Assembly: GCA_051647205.1 (NCBI GenBank)
Contig: JBOFDR010000091.1
Span: 1 to 31,410, forward strand
Length of the DNA: 31,410 nt
Direction of reading: 5' to 3'
DNA from: Brevinema sp.
GTDB lineage: Bacteria > Spirochaetota > Brevinematia > Brevinematales > Brevinemataceae
How positions within the stretch are numbered: position 1 is the stretch's first letter; each line of letters begins with the position of its first letter. Position numbers and translations under genes: made by a program. A model generated the notes under the pieces. That model made no database searches. It saw nothing but the letters and a program-made list of their open reading frames with translations, and was not told where the DNA came from. This document shows positions 1-18,087 of this stretch, one piece after another.

Positions 1-1704
1 GAAAAAGATATGTTAGATAGTTTTGACGAAAAAAATATCATTGTAGATCATTTTGAAGAATATAATTTTTCTAGTATTGTCGAAGAAATGACTCCTTGGG
101 AGCGTATACTGAGATTATTTTATTCTTTGTTTCGTAAAGAACAATTACTTGAATTTTATCTTCATTGTGGTATTAAACATATTGAGCATAAACTAACAAC
201 AAACGCTTCTTGGTATGATGAAGAGCATAAGGCTTTGGATATTACTTTTGCGGATACTTTATTTCATTTGGTTAGGTCATTAGATGTACTTTCTCCCCTA
301 ATTAAATCAATGATTCTTAATAACCCTCCTCCAACCAATCCCCCTAACAAACAAATTCCAGAAATTATCGAAGTTGTTTTTTATTCAATTTATAAATCTC
401 AATCAATCCAATCGTATCCCTTTTCAGAAATTAAAATGATGAATCTTTTTCAGGGGGTTCCTCCTTCACAGATGCTTCATAAAAAAGATCATTGTGTGCG
501 GGATTATATTGATAGTATTACGGAGCATGATTGGGGTTATATTGATATTAAATATTCTAATTTAATAGGTGTTGCTCGATTGATTGAGTTACCGTTGATG
601 GATTTTTTGAGAAGATTTGCTTTTGATGTGTCGATTCATTCGGCCAGCAAAATATCTTGGGATTTAGTAACAATAAGTGCCGTTGATTCCTACCTTGAAA
701 TGCTTTATAAAGTTGTTGATAGCTTCTCTCTTTCTAGAGACTATGTTGATATTATTAAATCTCTAAATACATCTAATAAATCTCTATTTGATCCTTCGTT
801 TCCATTAACTTCTCAACAAATCAGCTTAGCTTGGGATGAATTAGTTATAGCATTAGAAAAATTCAAAGCAGATGACACATTATACAACCTCCTATGTATC
901 TCAAAAAAACACCCTCTAATCTCAAAAGAAAATCATCCTGTGACTTTTTCATTAAGAGAAAAGTTTTGTTCGACATTAAAAAAGAGAGTTTACAGTACTT
1001 CTGATACAGTTATTAAAAATATTTTCTTAAGAAAAATAGAAGATCTTATGGCATTAATTGTCCTACAAAAACACTATACTTTTATTCCTTTTGGGGTTTA
1101 TAGTATTGATAATCATAAGAGAATTGAAAAAATTAGCTCTGAAAATCTCATGCATGCCTTTGTTTTGACTTCTATTTATGTTTTTGTTTACGATTCTGTT
1201 CAACCATGGCTAAAAAGTTTTCTTGGATTTTTAATGGTTAATGCAGAATTCTCTGATCCTGAAAGTATTACCATTCTTGAGACTTTATATAAAAAAACCA
1301 CAAAATTTATGTTGAAATTTCATTCTTTCTCTCAAGAAGTAGCTACTAAATCACCAGTAAGTAAACGGATGCAACAATTTTTAGATGCTAATAATTCTAA
1401 ATTAACAGATGAGCAAGTCCGAATCTTAAAAATGTTTATTGATTCAATGAATTCTCAGGCAGGTGTCTTGGTCTCACAATTTGAAGATCTTATAGGTGTT
1501 TTAGCACCATTTTTAGGCTCAGTCTCTAATGAATTGCAACAAGAGCATCAAAATTTCATCCCAAATGTACTTGCTATAAAAAAATTAATGAACAGAGGTG
1601 AAATTGTGAGAATTTCTAATTTCTATATTTTCTGCCAGAATGTAGAACGTCTCATCCAGCTGGAAGAGCAGTTAAACATGTTGAAAAAATCTAAAGAGGA
1701 TTAA
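1..1704 (+). CDS. Large alpha-helical hypothetical protein, possibly DUF5312 family; may be 5'-truncated by the window edge
   Basis: 564-aa ORF from ATG at 10, but the frame is open back to position 1 (gaa aaa gat atg). Helical, no TM segment. Its size and character recall spirochete DUF5312 proteins (family assignment is recall only). The stop TAA abuts the hflX ATG. Confidence 0.5.
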   Translation, partial: EKDMLDSFDEKNIIVDHFEEYNFSSIVEEMTPWERILRLFYSLFRKEQLLEFYLHCGIKHIEHKLTTNASWYDEEHKALDITFADTLFHLVRSLDVLSPLIKSMILNNPPPTNPPNKQIPEIIEVVFYSIYKSQSIQSYPFSEIKMMNLFQGVPPSQMLHKKDHCVRDYIDSITEHDWGYIDIKYSNLIGVARLIELPLMDFLRRFAFDVSIHSASKISWDLVTISAVDSYLEMLYKVVDSFSLSRDYVDIIKSLNTSNKSLFDPSFPLTSQQISLAWDELVIALEKFKADDTLYNLLCISKKHPLISKENHPVTFSLREKFCSTLKKRVYSTSDTVIKNIFLRKIEDLMALIVLQKHYTFIPFGVYSIDNHKRIEKISSENLMHAFVLTSIYVFVYDSVQPWLKSFLGFLMVNAEFSDPESITILETLYKKTTKFMLKFHSFSQEVATKSPVSKRMQQFLDANNSKLTDEQVRILKMFIDSMNSQAGVLVSQFEDLIGVLAPFLGSVSNELQQEHQNFIPNVLAIKKLMNRGEIVRISNFYIFCQNVERLIQLEEQLNMLKKSKED

Positions 1705-3392: not shown

Positions 3393-3449
3393 CAAAAATA
3401 GAATTATTCTGATTGAGATGTGATTTTACATATTAATCAAGGAGATTTT

Positions 3450-4928
3450 ATGAAAAAAATCTTGAAAAAAATCTGTGTCTTATGTTTGATTCCGATATAT
3501 GCTCATACTATGTCTTTAGATAAGGCAACTTTTCAGGTGGGACAACGATTTTTAAACCAAAAACTATTTTCTGAAGCAGAGATGCGTTTTTTAGATATTG
3601 TAAGAAAATATCCTGACTCTTCGTACTATCGTCAATCTCTATTTTATTTAGGTCAAACGTATGCCCATCAAGGAAAATATGAATCAGCCCTTCAGTACTA
3701 CAAAATTTTAATGAACAAATCACGTACCACCAAAGAGCGTCAATTAGCCTTACTTGGTATAGCAAAAAGCTGGCTCCAGATGGGTGTCCATGATAAAGCT
3801 GCTCAGTTTTATTCTTTTTTTGCGTCTGAATATCCAGAATCAGAACATGCGCCTGTTTCTCTTTATTTTGCTGGAATTTCACGTGAACGTGAAGGAAATA
3901 ACAAAGCTGCTGTTGAAAAATTTCGTGCTTTAATAAGTCAGTACCCAGAAACAGACTATTACGCTAAATCAATCGAAAAATTAGCAGTCCTTGAAAGTCA
4001 GACTCCTGAAGAATTATTTCTTGCTTCTTCTGCAAATAAAAAATCTTCGTCGTATCAACGTTCTGTTTCTGATATTCAGTTATTTGCGGATGATGACTTC
4101 AATCTTGATGAAGTGCCTAACTTTAATAATACAGATTTTCGTGGACAAGCTATTAATCTTGGAACGCCTGCACCACTTGTACTTACTCCAAGTATTGTTA
4201 CACAAACCATTCTTCAACCATCTCAGCCTACTGTTGTCACCCAACAGGTCTTTCAAACTCTTACACAGTTTGTTGAAAAGCCACCTGTTTATATTGCAGG
4301 AACTAATGCTCAATTAACTACTCCTTCTAATGTTGTCCCTGAAATTATTACTCCTGAAATTTCAACAGAACTTAATAATTTACAAAACAGTTCTGTGGTA
4401 CAACTTTCTAACAATCAGTTTACACCTTTAGAAACAACTGCACAACAAATACACAAGGCAGAATTAGAAGCTTATAAGAAAAAATGGGAAGCGGAATTTA
4501 AAGCAAAGTTAAAAAATGCAGAACTCCAAGAAGCAGAACAATCTGTTAAAGATCTTCTTCAATTAACCCAAAGTAAGGCTGATGTTTTATCAGTCAAAGA
4601 AGCAGATTTACTTGAGAAACAGAATCAACTAAAAGGTAATATTTATCGAGATTTAAAAAACGTAAATCCTGATTTTGCTGTAGCACCTCAATTTAACAAT
4701 CCTCCTTCATTTACAGGACAAAAAAAATCAGCTCCTTCTCCTGCTCCAGAGACTAATATTTCCCCTGTAATTACATCACCACCAATGCCTGCTCCAGAAT
4801 CTAATCCAGATCCTGTTTTGGAAGAAGAAGCTGATGCATATGAAGAAATTTCTAATGAAGATGATGAATACACAGAAGATTTTGATGAAGATCTCATAAG
4901 CTATGATGAGATAGAAGATGGAGAATAG
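3450..4928 (+). CDS. Exported TPR protein (BamD/CpoB-like TPR block, Pro/Thr/Gln-rich linker, coiled coil, acidic tail)
   Basis: SD aaggag precedes ATG 3450. Signal peptide MKKILKKICVLCLIPIYAH. About four TPRs with BamD/CpoB-style motifs (KYPDSSY, EYPESEHAP, QYPETDYY), then low-complexity and Asp/Glu-rich segments. Confidence 0.75.
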   Translation: MKKILKKICVLCLIPIYAHTMSLDKATFQVGQRFLNQKLFSEAEMRFLDIVRKYPDSSYYRQSLFYLGQTYAHQGKYESALQYYKILMNKSRTTKERQLALLGIAKSWLQMGVHDKAAQFYSFFASEYPESEHAPVSLYFAGISREREGNNKAAVEKFRALISQYPETDYYAKSIEKLAVLESQTPEELFLASSANKKSSSYQRSVSDIQLFADDDFNLDEVPNFNNTDFRGQAINLGTPAPLVLTPSIVTQTILQPSQPTVVTQQVFQTLTQFVEKPPVYIAGTNAQLTTPSNVVPEIITPEISTELNNLQNSSVVQLSNNQFTPLETTAQQIHKAELEAYKKKWEAEFKAKLKNAELQEAEQSVKDLLQLTQSKADVLSVKEADLLEKQNQLKGNIYRDLKNVNPDFAVAPQFNNPPSFTGQKKSAPSPAPETNISPVITSPPMPAPESNPDPVLEEEADAYEEISNEDDEYTEDFDEDLISYDEIEDGE

Positions 4929-4969
4929 ATACCCTCTATGCTAAATATTTGCTTTATAAGGAAATAATA

Positions 4970-6160
4970 ATGAAAAATCTTAAATTATATTGTATACTCG
5001 TCTTTGTTTTCGGCGTACTGTTTTCTGTCCACTCACAAGATATCCCTAAATTGTCTTTTTCTGCAGGCGATCTATTGTTTACTGTAGATCAAATTAGTGG
5101 ACGGTTTGGTTTGCGAAACATTAAAGAAAATGATTTTAATCTTAGTTCATTATTATTTGATCCTGGGTTTCCTACTTCTTATATTGAGATTTGTATTAAT
5201 GGGAATCCTTATCGATTAGAAGAATTGAAATCTGTTTATCCTTTAGGAATTGCTGCTGGTTATCAGATTGACGCTATTTATCAATGGGAGAATGATATTC
5301 AGATAGAGATTGGATACTTTACTATTGATGTAAAAACTAATCTTGATGCTATTGGTATTGCTGTTCGCATTACCAATATCTCAGATCGGGATCAACATAC
5401 TGTTTCTGTGAAATTATTATTAGACACTGATATTAGTGAGATTGATAATAAATCTTTGGTTTATCTCCAAAATGGTGAACATATTACTGAAGGAAGAATC
5501 TTTACAAATCCAACAATCCCTAATTATTTATTTTTTGGTAAAAAATCACAGTTTACCGAAAAAATAGAAGGAGCGGGATTATATCTGTATCCCACGATTT
5601 CTACTAATATTCCAAGAATGCTTGCTATTGGTAATTGGAAATATCTTTTAGATGCGGGCTCTTTTCCAAATAAAATCAATCCTTCTTTAAAATATCAAAA
5701 TAGTGATTCAATAGACATAGGTGTAGGGGTGTATTTTGATAAAAAAATACTTAAAGCTTCTGATTATTATGATGTTGCTTCTGCCATTTCTTTGAATAAA
5801 AATCAAACAGATTTTATTCTTGATCAAAAAATGATTGATAAAGGGGTATTTGCTCCAGAACGCTTTGAGATTGAAGAAATCTTACAACATCTTCCTACCA
5901 ATCATACAGCCAGGGTAGAGATTCGTTCTACACCTAGGTCTAAATCAATAATGAATACTTATGAGATCGCTAGACAAAATTATCGTCAGAAAAAACTACA
6001 AGTAGATACTACAGAGCTAGAAGCAGATTCTGTAAAAGCTTACGATTATTTAGGTAATTTATTACGAAATGATACTATCTGGAAGTACCTGTTTCAATTG
6101 AACTTCAAAATGGAAAATATTGAAGAAAAAATCAATAAAGTAATTAAAAGAGAAGATTAA
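4970..6160 (+). CDS. Exported hypothetical protein, beta-rich N-terminal domain and helical C-terminus
   Basis: SD aagga precedes ATG 4970. Signal peptide MKNLKLYCILVFVFGVLFSVHS. No recognised family. Probably co-transcribed with the TPR gene (41-nt gap). Confidence 0.65.
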   Translation: MKNLKLYCILVFVFGVLFSVHSQDIPKLSFSAGDLLFTVDQISGRFGLRNIKENDFNLSSLLFDPGFPTSYIEICINGNPYRLEELKSVYPLGIAAGYQIDAIYQWENDIQIEIGYFTIDVKTNLDAIGIAVRITNISDRDQHTVSVKLLLDTDISEIDNKSLVYLQNGEHITEGRIFTNPTIPNYLFFGKKSQFTEKIEGAGLYLYPTISTNIPRMLAIGNWKYLLDAGSFPNKINPSLKYQNSDSIDIGVGVYFDKKILKASDYYDVASAISLNKNQTDFILDQKMIDKGVFAPERFEIEEILQHLPTNHTARVEIRSTPRSKSIMNTYEIARQNYRQKKLQVDTTELEADSVKAYDYLGNLLRNDTIWKYLFQLNFKMENIEEKINKVIKRED

Positions 6161-6188: not shown

Positions 6189-6223
6189 AAGTGAGAGAAT
6201 TCATTATTCTCTTATTTTTTTTT
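6189..6223 (+). terminator. Probable intrinsic terminator
   Basis: aagtgagagaat-tcatt-attctcttattt stem (with G.U pairs) followed by a T run, 29 nt after the stop at 6160. Confidence 0.55.
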
Positions 6224-6315
6224 ATTTAAAACCGATAAAATTAATGAATTCTCTTATCTTGAGGAATTTTATTGAATTAATAATAAGATTTTTTATCGAA
6301 TCAAGGAATATTCAT

Positions 6316-8376
6316 ATGTCACAATGTATTTTTGATGCGATCTCTTTGCTAGAAGAAAAATTATCATCGGAACACCTAAATATTCACGAAACAAAAGAAA
6401 TGCTTGCTGATATTGTCAAAAAAAGTAGAGCCAACACTAAATTACGTATTATCACACAGTTTTTGGTGATCTTACATGCACTTACTGATGAATATGAATA
6501 TGAAAATACTGATCAGATTAGTTTTATCAAGGAACTTGTTAATAAGTCTCTTTCTTTGATTAGAGGTATGTCTGAGGGGACAATCAACTATACACAAGGC
6601 GTTTATTTAATAGAGCAAAAAATTGTCGAGATCTCTTCTTTTTTTAAACGAAAAATTGGTACTGATACTTTTCTTAGTAACTCTATTTTATCAGAACAAC
6701 TAGCAGTAGAATTGAAAACAGAAATGGCCAATATAAAAATAATTATTGATCAGCTTAATGAAGAAAAAAAGGATATTGATACTCAGTTTAAAGAAATAGT
6801 TTATCATTTAAAACGTTTGATTACTTTTGTTGATCTGATAGGGGTAACAGTTTTCTGTGATGAACTTCATAAAATAAAAGATTTTATTATAGATCAATAT
6901 AACAAAAATCAATTACCCCTCCTCAAAGAGAATAAACTTTTTCAAGAAGTACTATTTTATTTTTATGAAGTTGGTTTAAAAATTTCAGCTATTTATCATA
7001 GTACTAAAGAATTAACCTCCTATATCAATAGTATCAATAGTAGTCATTTTCCTAATATTTTAGAGGACTATACCACTCAAATGAATAAAGAAAATTCTTT
7101 TTCTAATACTTCAGAAGAAGGGTCTAAAAATAATCTCCGGTTTTCAAGAAATCAACATATGGATGATTATACTTCTTTATTAAGTAGTGATGAGATTAAT
7201 GCTTTAATGAATAATGATGATCCTTTTCCCAGCATTGATTTTGATCAAGTGCCACATTCTTCTGATACTAAAGAAGAAGCTGTTCCTTTTGATCTTTCTT
7301 TAGAAACAGCAAATGATATTTTTCATCAACAACAAAATCTATACATTCCTTCTACTTCTATAAAAATTGATCATATTAAAGATGAAGACAAATTAATTCA
7401 ATTAACAGGAAAATTATTTTTGAAGCAAGAGCAGATTAAATATCTTATTTCTAAGGATAATCAGATGATGTTGGCTGATTTGACAGAGCTGGATCAATTA
7501 ACAGATGATATTAAGCAGGTTCTTTTTCAACATTACTATATTTCGTTTAAAAATCTTCTCGGTGAAGAATTACGTACATTTATTAAAACAGAAGCAACAA
7601 ATTTAGGGAAAAAACTAAGATTAGGAATCAAAGGGGAAGACGTCGAGATTTTATCTCGAGAGCAGGATTTTGTGAAAAAAATAGTCTTTGATATTGTTGG
7701 TTATTCTTTGCAGCGTAGTATTGAGGTGATTTCTCGGAGAAAAGCTCTTGATAAAAATGAATCTGCTTCTTTATTGATTGAGTTTGATGATAGTGGGGAT
7801 ACCTTGTCAATTTATATTCGGGATGATGGGCGAGGAATCTCAGATGATGCTACAGTTTTAACTGATATTCAATCAAAAGTTATTGAAAAACAAGGTTTAA
7901 TGGATATTGAGACAGAAGAAAATGAATATCTTAAAATACGAATTCATTTACCAATGAAAAAAATAATTACTAAATCTCTTGTTGTACAAATTAAAGATAC
8001 CAAATTTCTTTTTCCTAGCAAATCTATTCTTCAAATCCTCACCCCTAGTGAGGCCGCTATTATCTTAAAAACAGATCATTGTTTAGGGCAAATTGCTTTA
8101 ACTACCTTAACAGGAATGGATCGGTCTATCGTTAATGCTTATTTGTTCTGTCTTTTTGGAAATGAAAAAATATTACTTGGTGTAGAGAATATATTATATT
8201 ATACAGAAGCACTTATGGAAAAAGTTAATGTTCCTTTGATTCCATGTACCAGTAGTGTAGTTGTTTTAAAAGATGGTACAATTGGTTTTGTAATCGATGA
8301 ACGAAAGATCTACAGTGAAAGTAAAAAACTCATTGAAAAACGTACAGAAATATTTCTAGAAAATATGATTATTTAA
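6316..8376 (+). CDS. CheA-like protein with degenerate Hpt and kinase motifs (predicted pseudokinase)
   Basis: SD aagga precedes ATG 6316 (in frame with track ORF 6244). Contains a P3-like SIKIDHIKDEDKLIQLTGKL, a P4-like NLGKKLRLGIKGEDVEI, G1 box IRDDGRGI, the RIHLPM junction and a C-terminal CheW-like P5 ending GTIGFVID. N-box, ATP lid and G2 box are degenerate or absent. Confidence 0.85.
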   Translation: MSQCIFDAISLLEEKLSSEHLNIHETKEMLADIVKKSRANTKLRIITQFLVILHALTDEYEYENTDQISFIKELVNKSLSLIRGMSEGTINYTQGVYLIEQKIVEISSFFKRKIGTDTFLSNSILSEQLAVELKTEMANIKIIIDQLNEEKKDIDTQFKEIVYHLKRLITFVDLIGVTVFCDELHKIKDFIIDQYNKNQLPLLKENKLFQEVLFYFYEVGLKISAIYHSTKELTSYINSINSSHFPNILEDYTTQMNKENSFSNTSEEGSKNNLRFSRNQHMDDYTSLLSSDEINALMNNDDPFPSIDFDQVPHSSDTKEEAVPFDLSLETANDIFHQQQNLYIPSTSIKIDHIKDEDKLIQLTGKLFLKQEQIKYLISKDNQMMLADLTELDQLTDDIKQVLFQHYYISFKNLLGEELRTFIKTEATNLGKKLRLGIKGEDVEILSREQDFVKKIVFDIVGYSLQRSIEVISRRKALDKNESASLLIEFDDSGDTLSIYIRDDGRGISDDATVLTDIQSKVIEKQGLMDIETEENEYLKIRIHLPMKKIITKSLVVQIKDTKFLFPSKSILQILTPSEAAIILKTDHCLGQIALTTLTGMDRSIVNAYLFCLFGNEKILLGVENILYYTEALMEKVNVPLIPCTSSVVVLKDGTIGFVIDERKIYSESKKLIEKRTEIFLENMII

Positions 8377-8384
8377 GAGGTACT

Positions 8385-8837
8385 ATGCCAGTAGTAATAC
8401 CGTTTATGGTAGGTGAAGGTTGGTTTGGACTAACATTAGATTTTGTTAAGGGAATTGAATCCACAGGTTCTATATCTCTTATACCTAATTCTCAAAAGCC
8501 TCTTGTAGGTTTGATGCATAAGAACAATAAGATTATCCCTGTTTGGTCTATAACTCCAGCTATTTTAGACCGCCAAAGTGAAATACAGCATCGTCGCTAT
8601 TACATAGATTTATTGATAGATAATCAACAAATCGCAATACCTGTTGATGTAGTAAAAACTGTGACTGAAGTAGCTGAGGGATGGATTCCTTCCGAAATTG
8701 CTGGACTGACGATTTATCGTTCTTTGGGCAAGAATCCTTCTTTAGAAACACAGAAACTTGTTAAAGAAATAAAAATCCCAGAGTCTAAGTTTTACAAAGA
8801 CACAGAATTGTCCTCTTTTTCATTAGAAGACATATAA
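8385..8837 (+). CDS. Divergent CheW-like protein
   Basis: 8 nt after the cheA-like gene, SD gagg. FMVGEGWFGLTLDFVKGI, LIPNSQKPLVGLM, IIPVWSI and IAIPVDVV match the CheW fold pattern. The canonical NLRG is replaced by HKNN. Confidence 0.85.
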   Translation: MPVVIPFMVGEGWFGLTLDFVKGIESTGSISLIPNSQKPLVGLMHKNNKIIPVWSITPAILDRQSEIQHRRYYIDLLIDNQQIAIPVDVVKTVTEVAEGWIPSEIAGLTIYRSLGKNPSLETQKLVKEIKIPESKFYKDTELSSFSLEDI

Positions 8838-8862
8838 AAATCCCCATATTGGGGATTTTTAT
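8834..8862. terminator. Bidirectional intrinsic terminator
   Basis: Perfect inverted repeat ataaaaatcccca-tat-tggggatttttat between convergent genes, with A/T tracts on both sides. Confidence 0.85.
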
Positions 8863-9512
8863 TTTTGTTTTGTTAATTCTTGTAAACTTTTTTCTAGTCG
8901 TCTGATTTCATCTTGAGCACCTTCAGGTGTGTCAATAAAGACTAAAATACGTCTTCGATAGAAAGAAAATTCTGCAGGGAAGTTTATCTTAGATAATTCA
9001 TTCCTTAGGATTCCGTATTCTAAAGACAAAGAATATTGTTTTTCTGTATCTGTATTAAGAGAGTTTTTTGCCCAAAGAAGCATCTCTGATTCAACTTCAT
9101 AAAGAAATTTTGCATAGTGTTTTGTATTGTGCTGACTTTGATAAAGAGCTATTAATTTTGGTAATAAAAATAAAAACACCTTGATTTTACTAAGGTCTGT
9201 TTTTGCAAGATGTACTTTATTTGATATAGTCATGTTTTCTGTAGGAGCAGAGGGATTAGCATAAATAAAAAACTCTAAAGTAGGAAGTGTGATCACAGCA
9301 CTATTTTTTAGAACAAGTGCTTTTGATGTTGGCTGATACATTGTAAGATCACATTCCAAATTTAATAATTGGGTAGAATTTCTGATAGTTAGAGCTTTTG
9401 AAATATATTCATGATATTTTTCTTGTAGGCTTAGGAGTTCTTTTTTTGTCCATTCATGCTCATTACAAAATAACTGTGTTACTGTTAATAATATGATTAA
9501 TAAAATTCTCAT
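8859..9512 (-). CDS. Exported hypothetical protein, helical
   Basis: 217 aa, hydrophobic N-terminus MRILLIILLTVTQLFC, SD gggga upstream. No recognised motif. Confidence 0.65.
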   Translation of the reverse strand: MRILLIILLTVTQLFCNEHEWTKKELLSLQEKYHEYISKALTIRNSTQLLNLECDLTMYQPTSKALVLKNSAVITLPTLEFFIYANPSAPTENMTISNKVHLAKTDLSKIKVFLFLLPKLIALYQSQHNTKHYAKFLYEVESEMLLWAKNSLNTDTEKQYSLSLEYGILRNELSKINFPAEFSFYRRRILVFIDTPEGAQDEIRRLEKSLQELTKQK

Positions 9513-16555: not shown

Positions 16556-16586
16556 AAATAACCCCCTATTTTATAGGGGGTTATTT
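16556..16586. terminator. Bidirectional intrinsic terminator
   Basis: Perfect inverted repeat aaataaccccctat-ttt-atagggggttattt between convergent genes. Confidence 0.85.
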
Positions 16587-18012
16587 ATTCTGAAATATTC
16601 ATATTTTGTGAAATAATAGGATCAACACCATAGGTATTACGATATAGTTGTTCAAAATTCTTAACTAATCCATCTCGGATAAGAATGATTTTGGTTTCTG
16701 AAATTGATGGTTGTTTGGAGTTTTCTTGACTATGATAATCTAAAAGATACTCGTGTAATGCTGAGGATTGTTCTTTCATATGTGTACAAATACGCTTTAT
16801 TTCTGATAGTGATTCGGCACTTTGATCTAATTGAGAAAAATCTAGTGTTGGAGTCGTATGACTAGGAGTTCCTATCGCTGTATTCTTAATATCAGGAAGT
16901 GTTTCCAGAATATTTTTAGCAACGGCATAGGATTTTCTGATTACGAGATCGGCATCTCTTAGTTCTTCAATAATAGCATGCCCAATATTAGAACTTTTCT
17001 CAGCAAAATTCTTCACACGATCGGAAACAGACATAAAGACTTTTCCAGAATCACCAGCTTTAGATGCTTCGATAGAGATATTAAGCGCTAAGATTCCTGC
17101 TTGAAAACCATTATCAGAGGATGATTTTGCAAGAGTGGAAGCTCGTTCTGCTCTTGTGAAAAGACGTGAGAGCATTTTTTGCATAGAAAGAATTTTTTCT
17201 TTTAATACTACTGAATCCTGATTATTTAGATGATCTAGTGATTGTTGATGATCGCTTATATTGATGCTTGTGGTTCCTGCTTTAGAAATATATTCGGAAA
17301 TACTTTTTTGAATAGGATCAATCTTTAGGGGTAGCTCGTTTGAATACTTTAATAAAGAATAAAGATGCTCTATGTTGAATTTGTGAGAAGTATTTTGTGT
17401 ATTAGCAGATTCCCAATCAATAGATTGCAATTCTTCCCAAATATTTTCAAGCACAACAGAATTTTTAGCAATGATTTTTTTAGATAGCAAAGATGCACCA
17501 TTTAATGTCATAAAAATACAAATAAAAATAAATCCCATATAAACAGGAAGTATTAATTTTATAAATAAATAAATAAAAGAAGTTTTTATGGTAGAGTTAA
17601 TTATTCTTTTTATGAGTTCGATCTGATCATAAAATTCTTGGAAAGCATTTCCTTTTTCTTCTAAGTTTTTACTGGATAGTGAGGAATAAAATTTTTCACT
17701 AATCTCCTGTAATAAATTTATTTCTGCTTCAGCATTAGGAAGGGTTTTTAAAAATTGTTTTTTATGAAGAATGTTCCATGAACTAAGACTTGTTTTAGAA
17801 CTATCAATATCGATATTATTATTTAATAACATTGATGCTTCACTGCTGATTTCAGTAAAATACAAGGCGTTTTTTTGTAACAAGGTATGTTCAGAGTTCT
17901 TAATAAAATAAAATAATGCACAAACAATAGTAAAAATAGATAATAAAATCCATACAGCGATTATTTTTTGTGAGTATTTAGTAACAGATGAATTTATGTT
18001 ATCATATGCCAT
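16585..18012 (-). CDS. Divergent methyl-accepting chemotaxis protein-like receptor
   Basis: SD ggagg precedes ATG 18012. Two TM segments flank a ~105-aa helical sensor region. Hairpin-tip-like FQAGILALNISIEASKAGDSGKVFMSVSDRVKNFAEKS. Confidence 0.85.
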   Translation of the reverse strand: MAYDNINSSVTKYSQKIIAVWILLSIFTIVCALFYFIKNSEHTLLQKNALYFTEISSEASMLLNNNIDIDSSKTSLSSWNILHKKQFLKTLPNAEAEINLLQEISEKFYSSLSSKNLEEKGNAFQEFYDQIELIKRIINSTIKTSFIYLFIKLILPVYMGFIFICIFMTLNGASLLSKKIIAKNSVVLENIWEELQSIDWESANTQNTSHKFNIEHLYSLLKYSNELPLKIDPIQKSISEYISKAGTTSINISDHQQSLDHLNNQDSVVLKEKILSMQKMLSRLFTRAERASTLAKSSSDNGFQAGILALNISIEASKAGDSGKVFMSVSDRVKNFAEKSSNIGHAIIEELRDADLVIRKSYAVAKNILETLPDIKNTAIGTPSHTTPTLDFSQLDQSAESLSEIKRICTHMKEQSSALHEYLLDYHSQENSKQPSISETKIILIRDGLVKNFEQLYRNTYGVDPIISQNMNISE

Positions 18013-18059
18013 CTTATCATCCTCCATCGAATAGAAAAATTATCGTAATCGTAAATAAG

Positions 18060-18087
18060 ATATCGGTATAAAGTATAAAATATTTAG
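18060..18087 (-). promoter_or_regulatory. Putative sigma28 promoter for the MCP-like gene
   Basis: Minus strand CTAAA (18087-18083), N15, ACCGATAT (18067-18060), 47 nt upstream of the ATG. Close to the SigD/FliA consensus (C)TAAA-N15/16-GCCGATAT. Confidence 0.7.

Follow-up and report, generated by a model that had tools for sequence, protein, structure and literature searches.

The window analysed here, a 31,410-nucleotide stretch corresponding to positions 1 to 31,410 (forward strand) of contig JBOFDR010000091.1 from the Brevinema sp. assembly GCA_051647205.1, a 1.42-Mb draft in 318 contigs that is 87.5% complete, carries two adjacent open reading frames (ORFs) on its forward strand: one for a degenerate homologue of the chemotaxis kinase CheA, hereafter pseudo-CheA (6316-8376; 686 residues plus stop), and one for a divergent, dedicated CheW (8385-8837; 150 residues plus stop; Pfam CheW E 7.5e-8). 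The 8-nt gap between the pseudo-cheA stop and the CheW frame carries a Shine-Dalgarno-like AGAGG (8376-8380), a second such site, AAGGAA (6304-6309), precedes the pseudo-cheA start at 6316, and a 13-bp hairpin resembling a bidirectional intrinsic terminator (8834-8862) closes the two-gene unit; the ribosome-binding sites and terminator described in an earlier, sequence-only reading of this DNA were thus all recovered. The start at 6316 opens the pattern MSxxLFD, and every orthologue begins there. An alternative start at 6244 (710-residue frame) was rejected, as it lies 5 nt past a conserved -10-like element and the orthologues lack it. We conclude with high confidence that the 686-residue protein is a selected, kinase-dead descendant of CheA that has its own CheW.

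Domain layout and catalytic lesions

Pfam returned no family for the 686-residue protein even at an E-value of 10, and the CheA models of NCBIfam matched it weakly (E 4e-9, residues 347-522). A family profile built from 10 sequences, with nine full-length orthologues at 34-59% identity to the query, matched the solved CheAs of E. coli (6s1k, E 1.9e-16) and T. maritima (1b3q, E 1.4e-14). The match covers P3, P4 and the first part of P5 and falls into two segments, with E. coli CheA residues 430-475 left out between them. The AlphaFold2 (AF2) model, with a mean predicted local distance difference test (pLDDT) score of 66, is good at residues 1-250 and 355-550 and poor at P5, and its best matches in the PDB (Foldseek) were the CheA P3-P4 structures 1b3q, 4xiv and 1i59. 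Full-length CheA models from Swiss-Prot aligned by Foldseek to query residues ~125 to ~675 starting from their own residue 5-9; the second helical bundle is therefore assigned to P1, and residues 1-120 to an extra N-terminal domain.

The intact ORF with CheA domain order that had been read from the sequence was confirmed by the profile, Foldseek and Swiss-Prot alignments. The order, all on the forward strand, is an N-terminal extension of five helices (6316..6669, residues 1-118; AF2 pLDDT 65-91), a P1/Hpt-derived helical bundle that holds no phosphorylatable His (6670..7101, residues 119-262), a variable linker (7102..7371, residues 263-352) with a conserved island at 7177-7209, a homologue of the P3 dimerisation domain, identified by the profile match and a helical hairpin in the model (7372..7611, residues 353-432), a relic of the P4 (HATPase_c) domain, delimited by joint alignment and profile (7612..7962, residues 433-549), and a CheW-like P5 domain (7963..8373, residues 550-686); P2 is absent. 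P5 has a 13-residue deletion where the P5 of CheA holds an RG-containing pair of strands. Its pLDDT is under 50 in the AF2 monomer but 86-87 in complex runs, and we make no structural claim on P5 from the monomer model because it is poorly modelled there. The protein has collinear P3, P4-fold and P5 CheW-like domains, as expected of a homologue of CheA by descent.

The machinery for phosphotransfer is missing from this scaffold. An hhalign comparison set Lys166 (6811-6813) on the phospho-His of the HTIKG motif, as the sequence-only reading had it within a stretch (6796-6843) whose coordinates proved exact, and the position is occupied by K, Q, N or R across 14 family members. A joint alignment with catalytic CheAs placed the degenerate N box at 7678-7725 (residues 455-470), one codon ahead of the start at 7681 given previously, and bore out the replacement of its His by Asp459 and of its Asn by Tyr463; the position of this Mg-binding Asn varies among family members (Y, N or I). 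In the same alignment the G1 box DDGRGI is kept, exactly at 7822-7839, and a 46-residue stretch comprising the ATP lid, the F box (FLPGFST) and the G2 box (GRGVG) is deleted, with the junction near 7854/7855, as had also been proposed. These lesions are common to 14/14 family members, four more distant ones included, and no match to Pfam HATPase_c was found in pseudo-CheA. Compared with a functional CheA, the protein thus has no P1 phospho-His (HxxKG) and retains, of the N, G1, F and G2 boxes, only G1. Because it has neither a phosphorylatable His nor an F or G2 box, pseudo-CheA should be able neither to autophosphorylate nor to carry a phosphoryl group.

Distribution, selection and origin

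An exhaustive search of 1.84 billion cluster representatives returned only 9 clusters at E below 1e-30, followed by a gap down to ordinary CheAs at E 1e-19. Whole-genome searches recovered a match over the full length in 12/12 Brevinemataceae genomes (three genera) and in 0/29 other genomes of the class, which gave CheA-level matches only. The frame is intact in 10/10 other genomes fetched, each of which has a frame of 128-169 codons directly after pseudo-cheA, a CheW gene in the annotated loci. Stop flags ('1 TAA') in two orthologues were dismissed as overruns of the match, both frames being intact. In the G001 assembly (same genus; 69% complete, 4% contamination, 2.3 Mb), two pseudo-cheA copies lie on different contigs (C22:14370-16400 and C173:2951-4552), which may reflect a mixture of strains and not a duplication.

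Nei-Gojobori ratios of nonsynonymous to synonymous substitution (dN/dS) for pseudo-cheA were 0.11 (G005/G007) and 0.22 (G001/G004), and those of canonical cheA in the same genome pairs were 0.06 and 0.22; as simple counts at dS 0.7-1.2 in an AT-rich genome these are rough values, and no conclusion draws on pairs whose dS exceeds about 1.4. Values of 0.11-0.22, like those of the canonical cheA of the same genomes, argue against decay. The most constrained parts are the lidless P4 (0.06-0.10), P3 (0.09-0.10) and P5 (0.11-0.13), whereas the Hpt-derived bundle gave 0.17-0.42 in the two least saturated pairs and, together with the linker, showed the weakest constraint in G001/G004, the less saturated pair. 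Fifty-seven residues are invariant in the 14 members, 27 of them in P4 and 0 in the Hpt-like bundle. Both genes are held by purifying selection across Brevinemataceae, and the earlier view of a maintained pseudokinase, not a decaying gene, is upheld by the lesions common to all members, a pair that is intact in 12/12 genomes and the dN/dS values.

Upstream of pseudo-cheA lies an element resembling the -10 of sigma-28 (FliA)-type promoters, AACCGATAA (6230..6238, forward strand; 77 nt before the ATG at 6316). The sequence CCGATA[AT] occurs 58-104 nt upstream of the orthologous start in 10/12 loci, with one-base variants (ACCGATGA or ACCGATAG) in the remaining 2/12, although the surrounding intergenic sequence of the 12 orthologous loci has otherwise diverged. 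FliA is encoded in the same genome, where CCGATAT is also found upstream of flagellin-, FliS- and rod-like genes and of a chemoreceptor gene that starts at 18027. The element fits the -10 part of the sigma-28 promoter type TAAA-N15-GCCGATAA, which would put the gene pair in the motility regulon. A terminator-like hairpin (GAGAGAA / TTCTCTT) with a T-run at 6193..6223 (forward strand), which is also visible before the orthologue in other loci, ends the upstream gene and divides the pseudo-cheA unit from two co-directional genes (3420-6160, forward strand) with signal-peptide-like N-termini, which encode a TPR protein whose tail is acidic and of low complexity and a 403-residue protein without a Pfam match; every family locus examined keeps the two in synteny. 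Two further conserved ORFs, 10-1704 (forward strand, 564 residues) and 8859-9512 (reverse strand, 217 residues), also have no Pfam match, and relatives hold syntenic counterparts of them (571 and about 209-222 residues, respectively).

When the family profile was run against the remaining families of the order, the top match was a second CheA of about 735-750 residues (E 1e-14 to 1e-19), whereas the motility-type CheA of those families matched at E 1e-8 to 1e-10. This sister class, exemplified by L018:7728-9929, retains HTIKG and the full set of N, G1, F and G2 boxes and is encoded in a cluster arranged cheD-cheR-mcp <> cheA-cheY-cheW. In one such genome the protein shows an Hpt domain (residues 149-239) followed by P3, HATPase_c and CheW domains, and a gene for a Cache-type methyl-accepting chemotaxis protein (MCP) and a receiver-PP2C gene lie near the cluster; the MCP of the sister cluster has a divergent tip. 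The first ~140 residues of the sister class match the N-terminal extension of pseudo-CheA (hhalign probability 93%, E 2.6e-7), the N-terminal halves of the two are collinear (probability 96%, E 1.9e-9; cross-domain controls under 1.5%), and their P5 domains match as well (probability 90%, E 1.7e-6). This N-terminal architecture is common only to pseudo-CheA and the sister class, whose phyletic distributions are complementary. The extra N-terminal helical domain is duplicated in one sister protein, P0025.

The sister class also resembles MshEN between Hpt and P3. MshEN, a c-di-GMP-binding domain reported to occur in CheA proteins, consists of two 24-residue motifs, [RK]hGxx..G..xxxxLxxxLxxQ, 5 residues apart (Wang et al., 2016; PMC5013675). 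A loosened form of this pattern was matched by 7/9 sister CheAs, three of which hold it twice at a spacing of 29, and by 0 members of the pseudo family. In the sister class itself (L018:7728-9929, residues ~283-335; L019:7639-9849; P0023-P0025), the motifs hint at an input from c-di-GMP. We infer that pseudo-CheA is a degenerate descendant of the sister class that has lost the MshEN-like motifs. A phylogeny of P3-P5, run on 72 and then 69 sequences, was uninformative, with the pseudo family, whose stem measures 2.5 changes per column, grouped with a second long branch, so the origin rests on the N-terminal architecture and the profile scores; the approximately unbiased (AU) test accepts placement with the sister class (log-likelihood, lnL, +4.3, p 0.63) and with the motility CheA class (lnL +2.7, p 0.59).

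Partner proteins, proposed role and rival explanations

The product of the second gene had been called a motif-less CheW, which goes too far: the domain passes the Pfam threshold (PF01584, score 32.5 bits, cut-off 23.5; 5-96 of the 138 model positions), and its losses are the conserved Arg and part of subdomain 2. As described in the sequence-only reading, HKNN stands where the other aligned CheWs have NLRG or NIRG. The orthologous CheWs have Q/H-K-x-G/N at this position and no Arg, the conserved Arg of NLRG being Arg62 of E. coli CheW, and about 10 residues of subdomain 2 are absent from the CheW of the window. A complex prediction that took P5 (14-row alignment) and the dedicated CheW (6 rows) as input gave 'weak support', with a score of 0.47 against 0.01 for the best of 3 controls. 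The mark set for this score is reached by 58/80 solved complexes and 2/110 mismatched pairs, and passes at 0.60 or under came from only 7/80 solved complexes, yet from both of the mismatches that passed. Since complexes of CheA P5 with CheW have already been solved, the prediction shows likeness more than proof.

A candidate cognate chemoreceptor lies in the same window. This MCP (16585..18027, reverse strand), with two transmembrane segments, has a rewritten signalling tip, ...GKVF.SVSDRVK..., where the other MCPs of the genome have the canonical ...GRGFA.VA.E.R...; GKVF replaces GRGF and SDRVK replaces ADEVR, and the variant is kept in the orthologues. A promoter-like site, TAAA-N15-ACCGATA (18061-18086, reverse strand), stands upstream of the gene. 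Exactly one orthologue of this MCP is present in each of the 12/12 Brevinemataceae genomes and none outside the family, where its best matches are often MCPs that adjoin sister-class cheA genes. Orthology with the divergent MCP of the sister cluster was not established, as BLASTP gave just a 34-residue match at the tip (E 0.002). Its distribution and its tip make the MCP at 16585-18027 a candidate partner of pseudo-CheA and CheW.

The genome also encodes the separate canonical CheA that the sequence-only reading had called for, split over two short contigs and followed by cheW and cheY, together with another CheW, a CheB-type receiver protein, CheR and four MCPs with ordinary tips. Five genomes were checked for receiver domains (this one, G003, G004, G009 and G011), and each encodes three such proteins, an NtrC-like regulator, CheY and CheB; given only three receiver proteins and a single CheY, pseudo-CheA has no private CheY. 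The same five genomes each encode one classical histidine kinase of about 368 residues in addition to CheA.

On balance, and with considerable reservation, we consider it probable that the pair provides a non-phosphorylating receptor/CheW/pseudo-CheA scaffold or regulator within the motility regulon. A pseudo-CheA dimer would bind the dedicated CheW through P5, and the two would dock onto chemoreceptor tips, most likely those of the family-specific receptor with the rewritten tip, to give kinase-free complexes resembling core units that would be expressed with the sigma-28 motility regulon. Such complexes would serve the chemoreceptor array, or the single CheA-CheY pathway, as scaffold or regulator, and their output would be conformational or based on binding and involve no phosphotransfer. 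That the lidless P4 core and one linker peptide are so strongly constrained suggests that they are the interaction surfaces for this output.

Several points weigh against the scaffold reading. The invariant Asp-Gly motif of G1 means that the P4 relic may still bind nucleotide, the predicted P5-CheW contact may reflect memory of the solved CheA-CheW complexes, and no conserved TAAA -35 at the right spacing was seen upstream of pseudo-cheA in the 12 loci. The MCP with the rewritten tip is 70-100 kb from the gene pair in two genera, so that its link to the pair rests on co-occurrence and on the co-divergence of tip, CheW and P5. Gene order says little on function, as the whole neighbourhood is syntenic in the family, and the P3-P5 tree cannot place the pseudo family, both placements surviving the AU test.

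The linker peptide is central to the first alternative. This island, L-[ST]-x-[DE]-E-[IV]-x-A-L-[ML] (LLSSDEINALM here; 7177-7209, forward strand), in which L289, E293, A296 and L297 are invariant in the 14 members within an otherwise variable linker, resembles the N-terminus of the genome's own FliM (MTEILSQDEIDALL), and a strict pattern, L[ST].[DE]E[IV].AL[LMI], that was chosen after both sequences were seen occurs only in FliM and the linker among ~495,000 residues of frames of at least 80 residues. The island could therefore mimic the FliM N-terminal motif, such that receptor-bound pseudo-CheA captures or buffers CheY~P produced by the canonical CheA, an explanation that the single CheY of the genome also favours and that we regard as rather unlikely. 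The post hoc choice of the pattern tells against it, amphipathic helices of this type are common, and the island is collinear with a helix of the sister MshEN-like motif (L-T-x-E-D-I-x-x-I-L; hhalign E 0.002, probability 14%). The likeness to the LSQxEIDALL-like FliM motif for CheY~P that was seen at the outset is present and conserved in the linker, but it may be inherited from the MshEN-like domain. The two readings are not necessarily mutually exclusive, since capture of CheY~P might be what such a scaffold delivers.

A more elaborate version, which we consider quite unlikely, is a phosphorylation-free signalling unit in which the receptor, depending on its state, would expose or hide the FliM-like linker peptide or the P4 relic, so that ligand binding would tune free CheY~P, or another partner, by sequestration and not through a kinase. 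The rewritten-tip receptor, the dedicated CheW and pseudo-CheA would work either in complexes of their own or by insertion into the main array. If true, a chemotaxis pathway with one kinase would have a second input channel of a non-enzymatic kind.

E. coli CheA autophosphorylates in trans within its dimer, and pseudo-CheA might act as a damper by pairing with the canonical CheA through P3, since trans-phosphorylation in a heterodimer would find no acceptor His and kinase output would be lowered. The conservation of P3 (dN/dS about 0.1) and the sigma-28-like element, which probably places both proteins in the same cells, speak for this mechanism; we nevertheless judge it improbable, as pseudo-CheA has its own CheW, probably stems from another CheA class than the motility CheA, and has a P3 too diverged for the Pfam model.

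Some eukaryotic pseudokinases report the binding of a ligand, and the lidless P4 core, with the invariant adenine-contact motif DDGxG of G1, might likewise bind a nucleotide or small molecule and report to the array. P4 is indeed the most conserved domain, with its 27 invariant residues and low dN/dS (0.06-0.10), and the G1 Asp and Gly residues never vary. However, the position of the Mg-binding Asn does vary, the N-box His is lost, the phosphate-binding loop of G2 and the lid are deleted in all members, and the conservation of P4 may equally mean a protein-protein surface; a sensor of this kind seems to us as improbable as the damper.

An active kinase in disguise, whose lidless ATP site would phosphorylate some non-canonical residue, for instance His24 in the N-terminal extension, is very improbable: G1 is kept and the 10 closest members all have His24 (DIH), but the deeper members P0019-P0021 lack it, conservation does not extend to the N-box residues, and no GHKL kinase is known that functions without the G2 loop and lid. 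Finally, the loss of all catalytic hallmarks, the absence of a Pfam match and the small, reduced genome of 1.4 Mb might recall a cheA paralogue without function that is heading to loss, a prospect that we rate as next to negligible given intact frames that carry a uniform set of lesions in three genera, at identities as low as 34%, dN/dS of 0.11-0.22, equal to or near that of canonical cheA, and the conservation of the Shine-Dalgarno site, the promoter-like element and the terminator.

Comparison with known systems

Chemosensory arrays are generally held to depend on CheA as their obligatory enzyme, and the pseudo-CheA family departs from that view. A very small genome with one CheA, one CheY and three receivers still keeps a CheA shell that is dimer-capable and receptor-coupling by homology, devoid of the chemistry, and with it a CheW and probably also a receptor that are private to it. 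This would make the family a natural system for roles of CheA as a scaffold beyond phosphorylation, such as array architecture in thin, highly curved spirochete cells, dilution of the kinase and buffering of CheY~P. Brevinema andersonii can be cultivated, and pseudo-CheA and its CheW are small enough for biochemistry and cryo-electron tomography.

Like canonical CheA (T. maritima 1B3Q and 2CH4; E. coli 6S1K), pseudo-CheA has the order P1-linker-P3-P4-P5, the P3-P4 fold, a G1 box and cheW downstream; unlike it, pseudo-CheA is devoid of the phospho-His, the lid and the F and G2 boxes, has a degenerate N box and a 13-residue deletion in P5, lacks P2 and carries a further domain at its N-terminus. 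Features in common with the sister CheA class are the N-terminal extension, the P1-type bundle and a cheW that follows, whereas the sister class has HTIKG, full boxes and tandem MshEN-like motifs, and its locus places cheY between cheA and cheW, with cheR, cheD and a response regulator-PP2C gene nearby.

A survey of CheA homologues regards P1, P3, P4 and P5 as core to all of them and identified CheAs by hits to both HATPase_c and CheW (PMC10782961), a criterion by which the Brevinemataceae family would be missed. A search of the literature for CheA pseudokinases and catalytically inactive CheA found nothing on such proteins under those names. Protein-language-model look-alikes of the query were CheW+Hpt clusters without HATPase_c, from Pseudomonadota. 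Among the nearest look-alikes by language-model features, the ESM Atlas also gave a cluster of 533-residue 'hypothetical proteins' with no common Pfam families, mostly from Candidatus Eiseniibacteriota, which may be another unrecognised derivative of CheA.

The closest precedent is CheA3 of Cereibacter (Rhodobacter) sphaeroides, a CheA paralogue with a degenerate kinase domain that keeps P5 and belongs to a chemoreceptor cluster. The kinase domain of CheA3 is missing helices and residues for ATP and Mg and does not autophosphorylate, but the protein keeps a phosphorylatable P1, which is phosphorylated by CheA4 of the same operon (Berry et al., 2023; PMC10782961). In contrast, the Brevinemataceae protein has no P1 His, no gene for a kinase with P3-P4-P5 only adjoins it, and its partner is a dedicated CheW and probably also a private receptor. 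Pseudo-CheA, though kinase-dead alike, is therefore not a member of the CheA3 type, for which both the P1 His and the adjacent partner kinase are missing, and, as its lineage is Spirochaetota, its origin would be independent of CheA3. A wider parallel is DivL of Caulobacter, a histidine-kinase pseudokinase whose fold is kept for signalling that is non-catalytic and works through binding (PMC4211667). DivL differs in being a classical DHp/CA kinase with Tyr for His and an intact CA fold; it is not a CheA and is coupled neither to CheW nor to a receptor.

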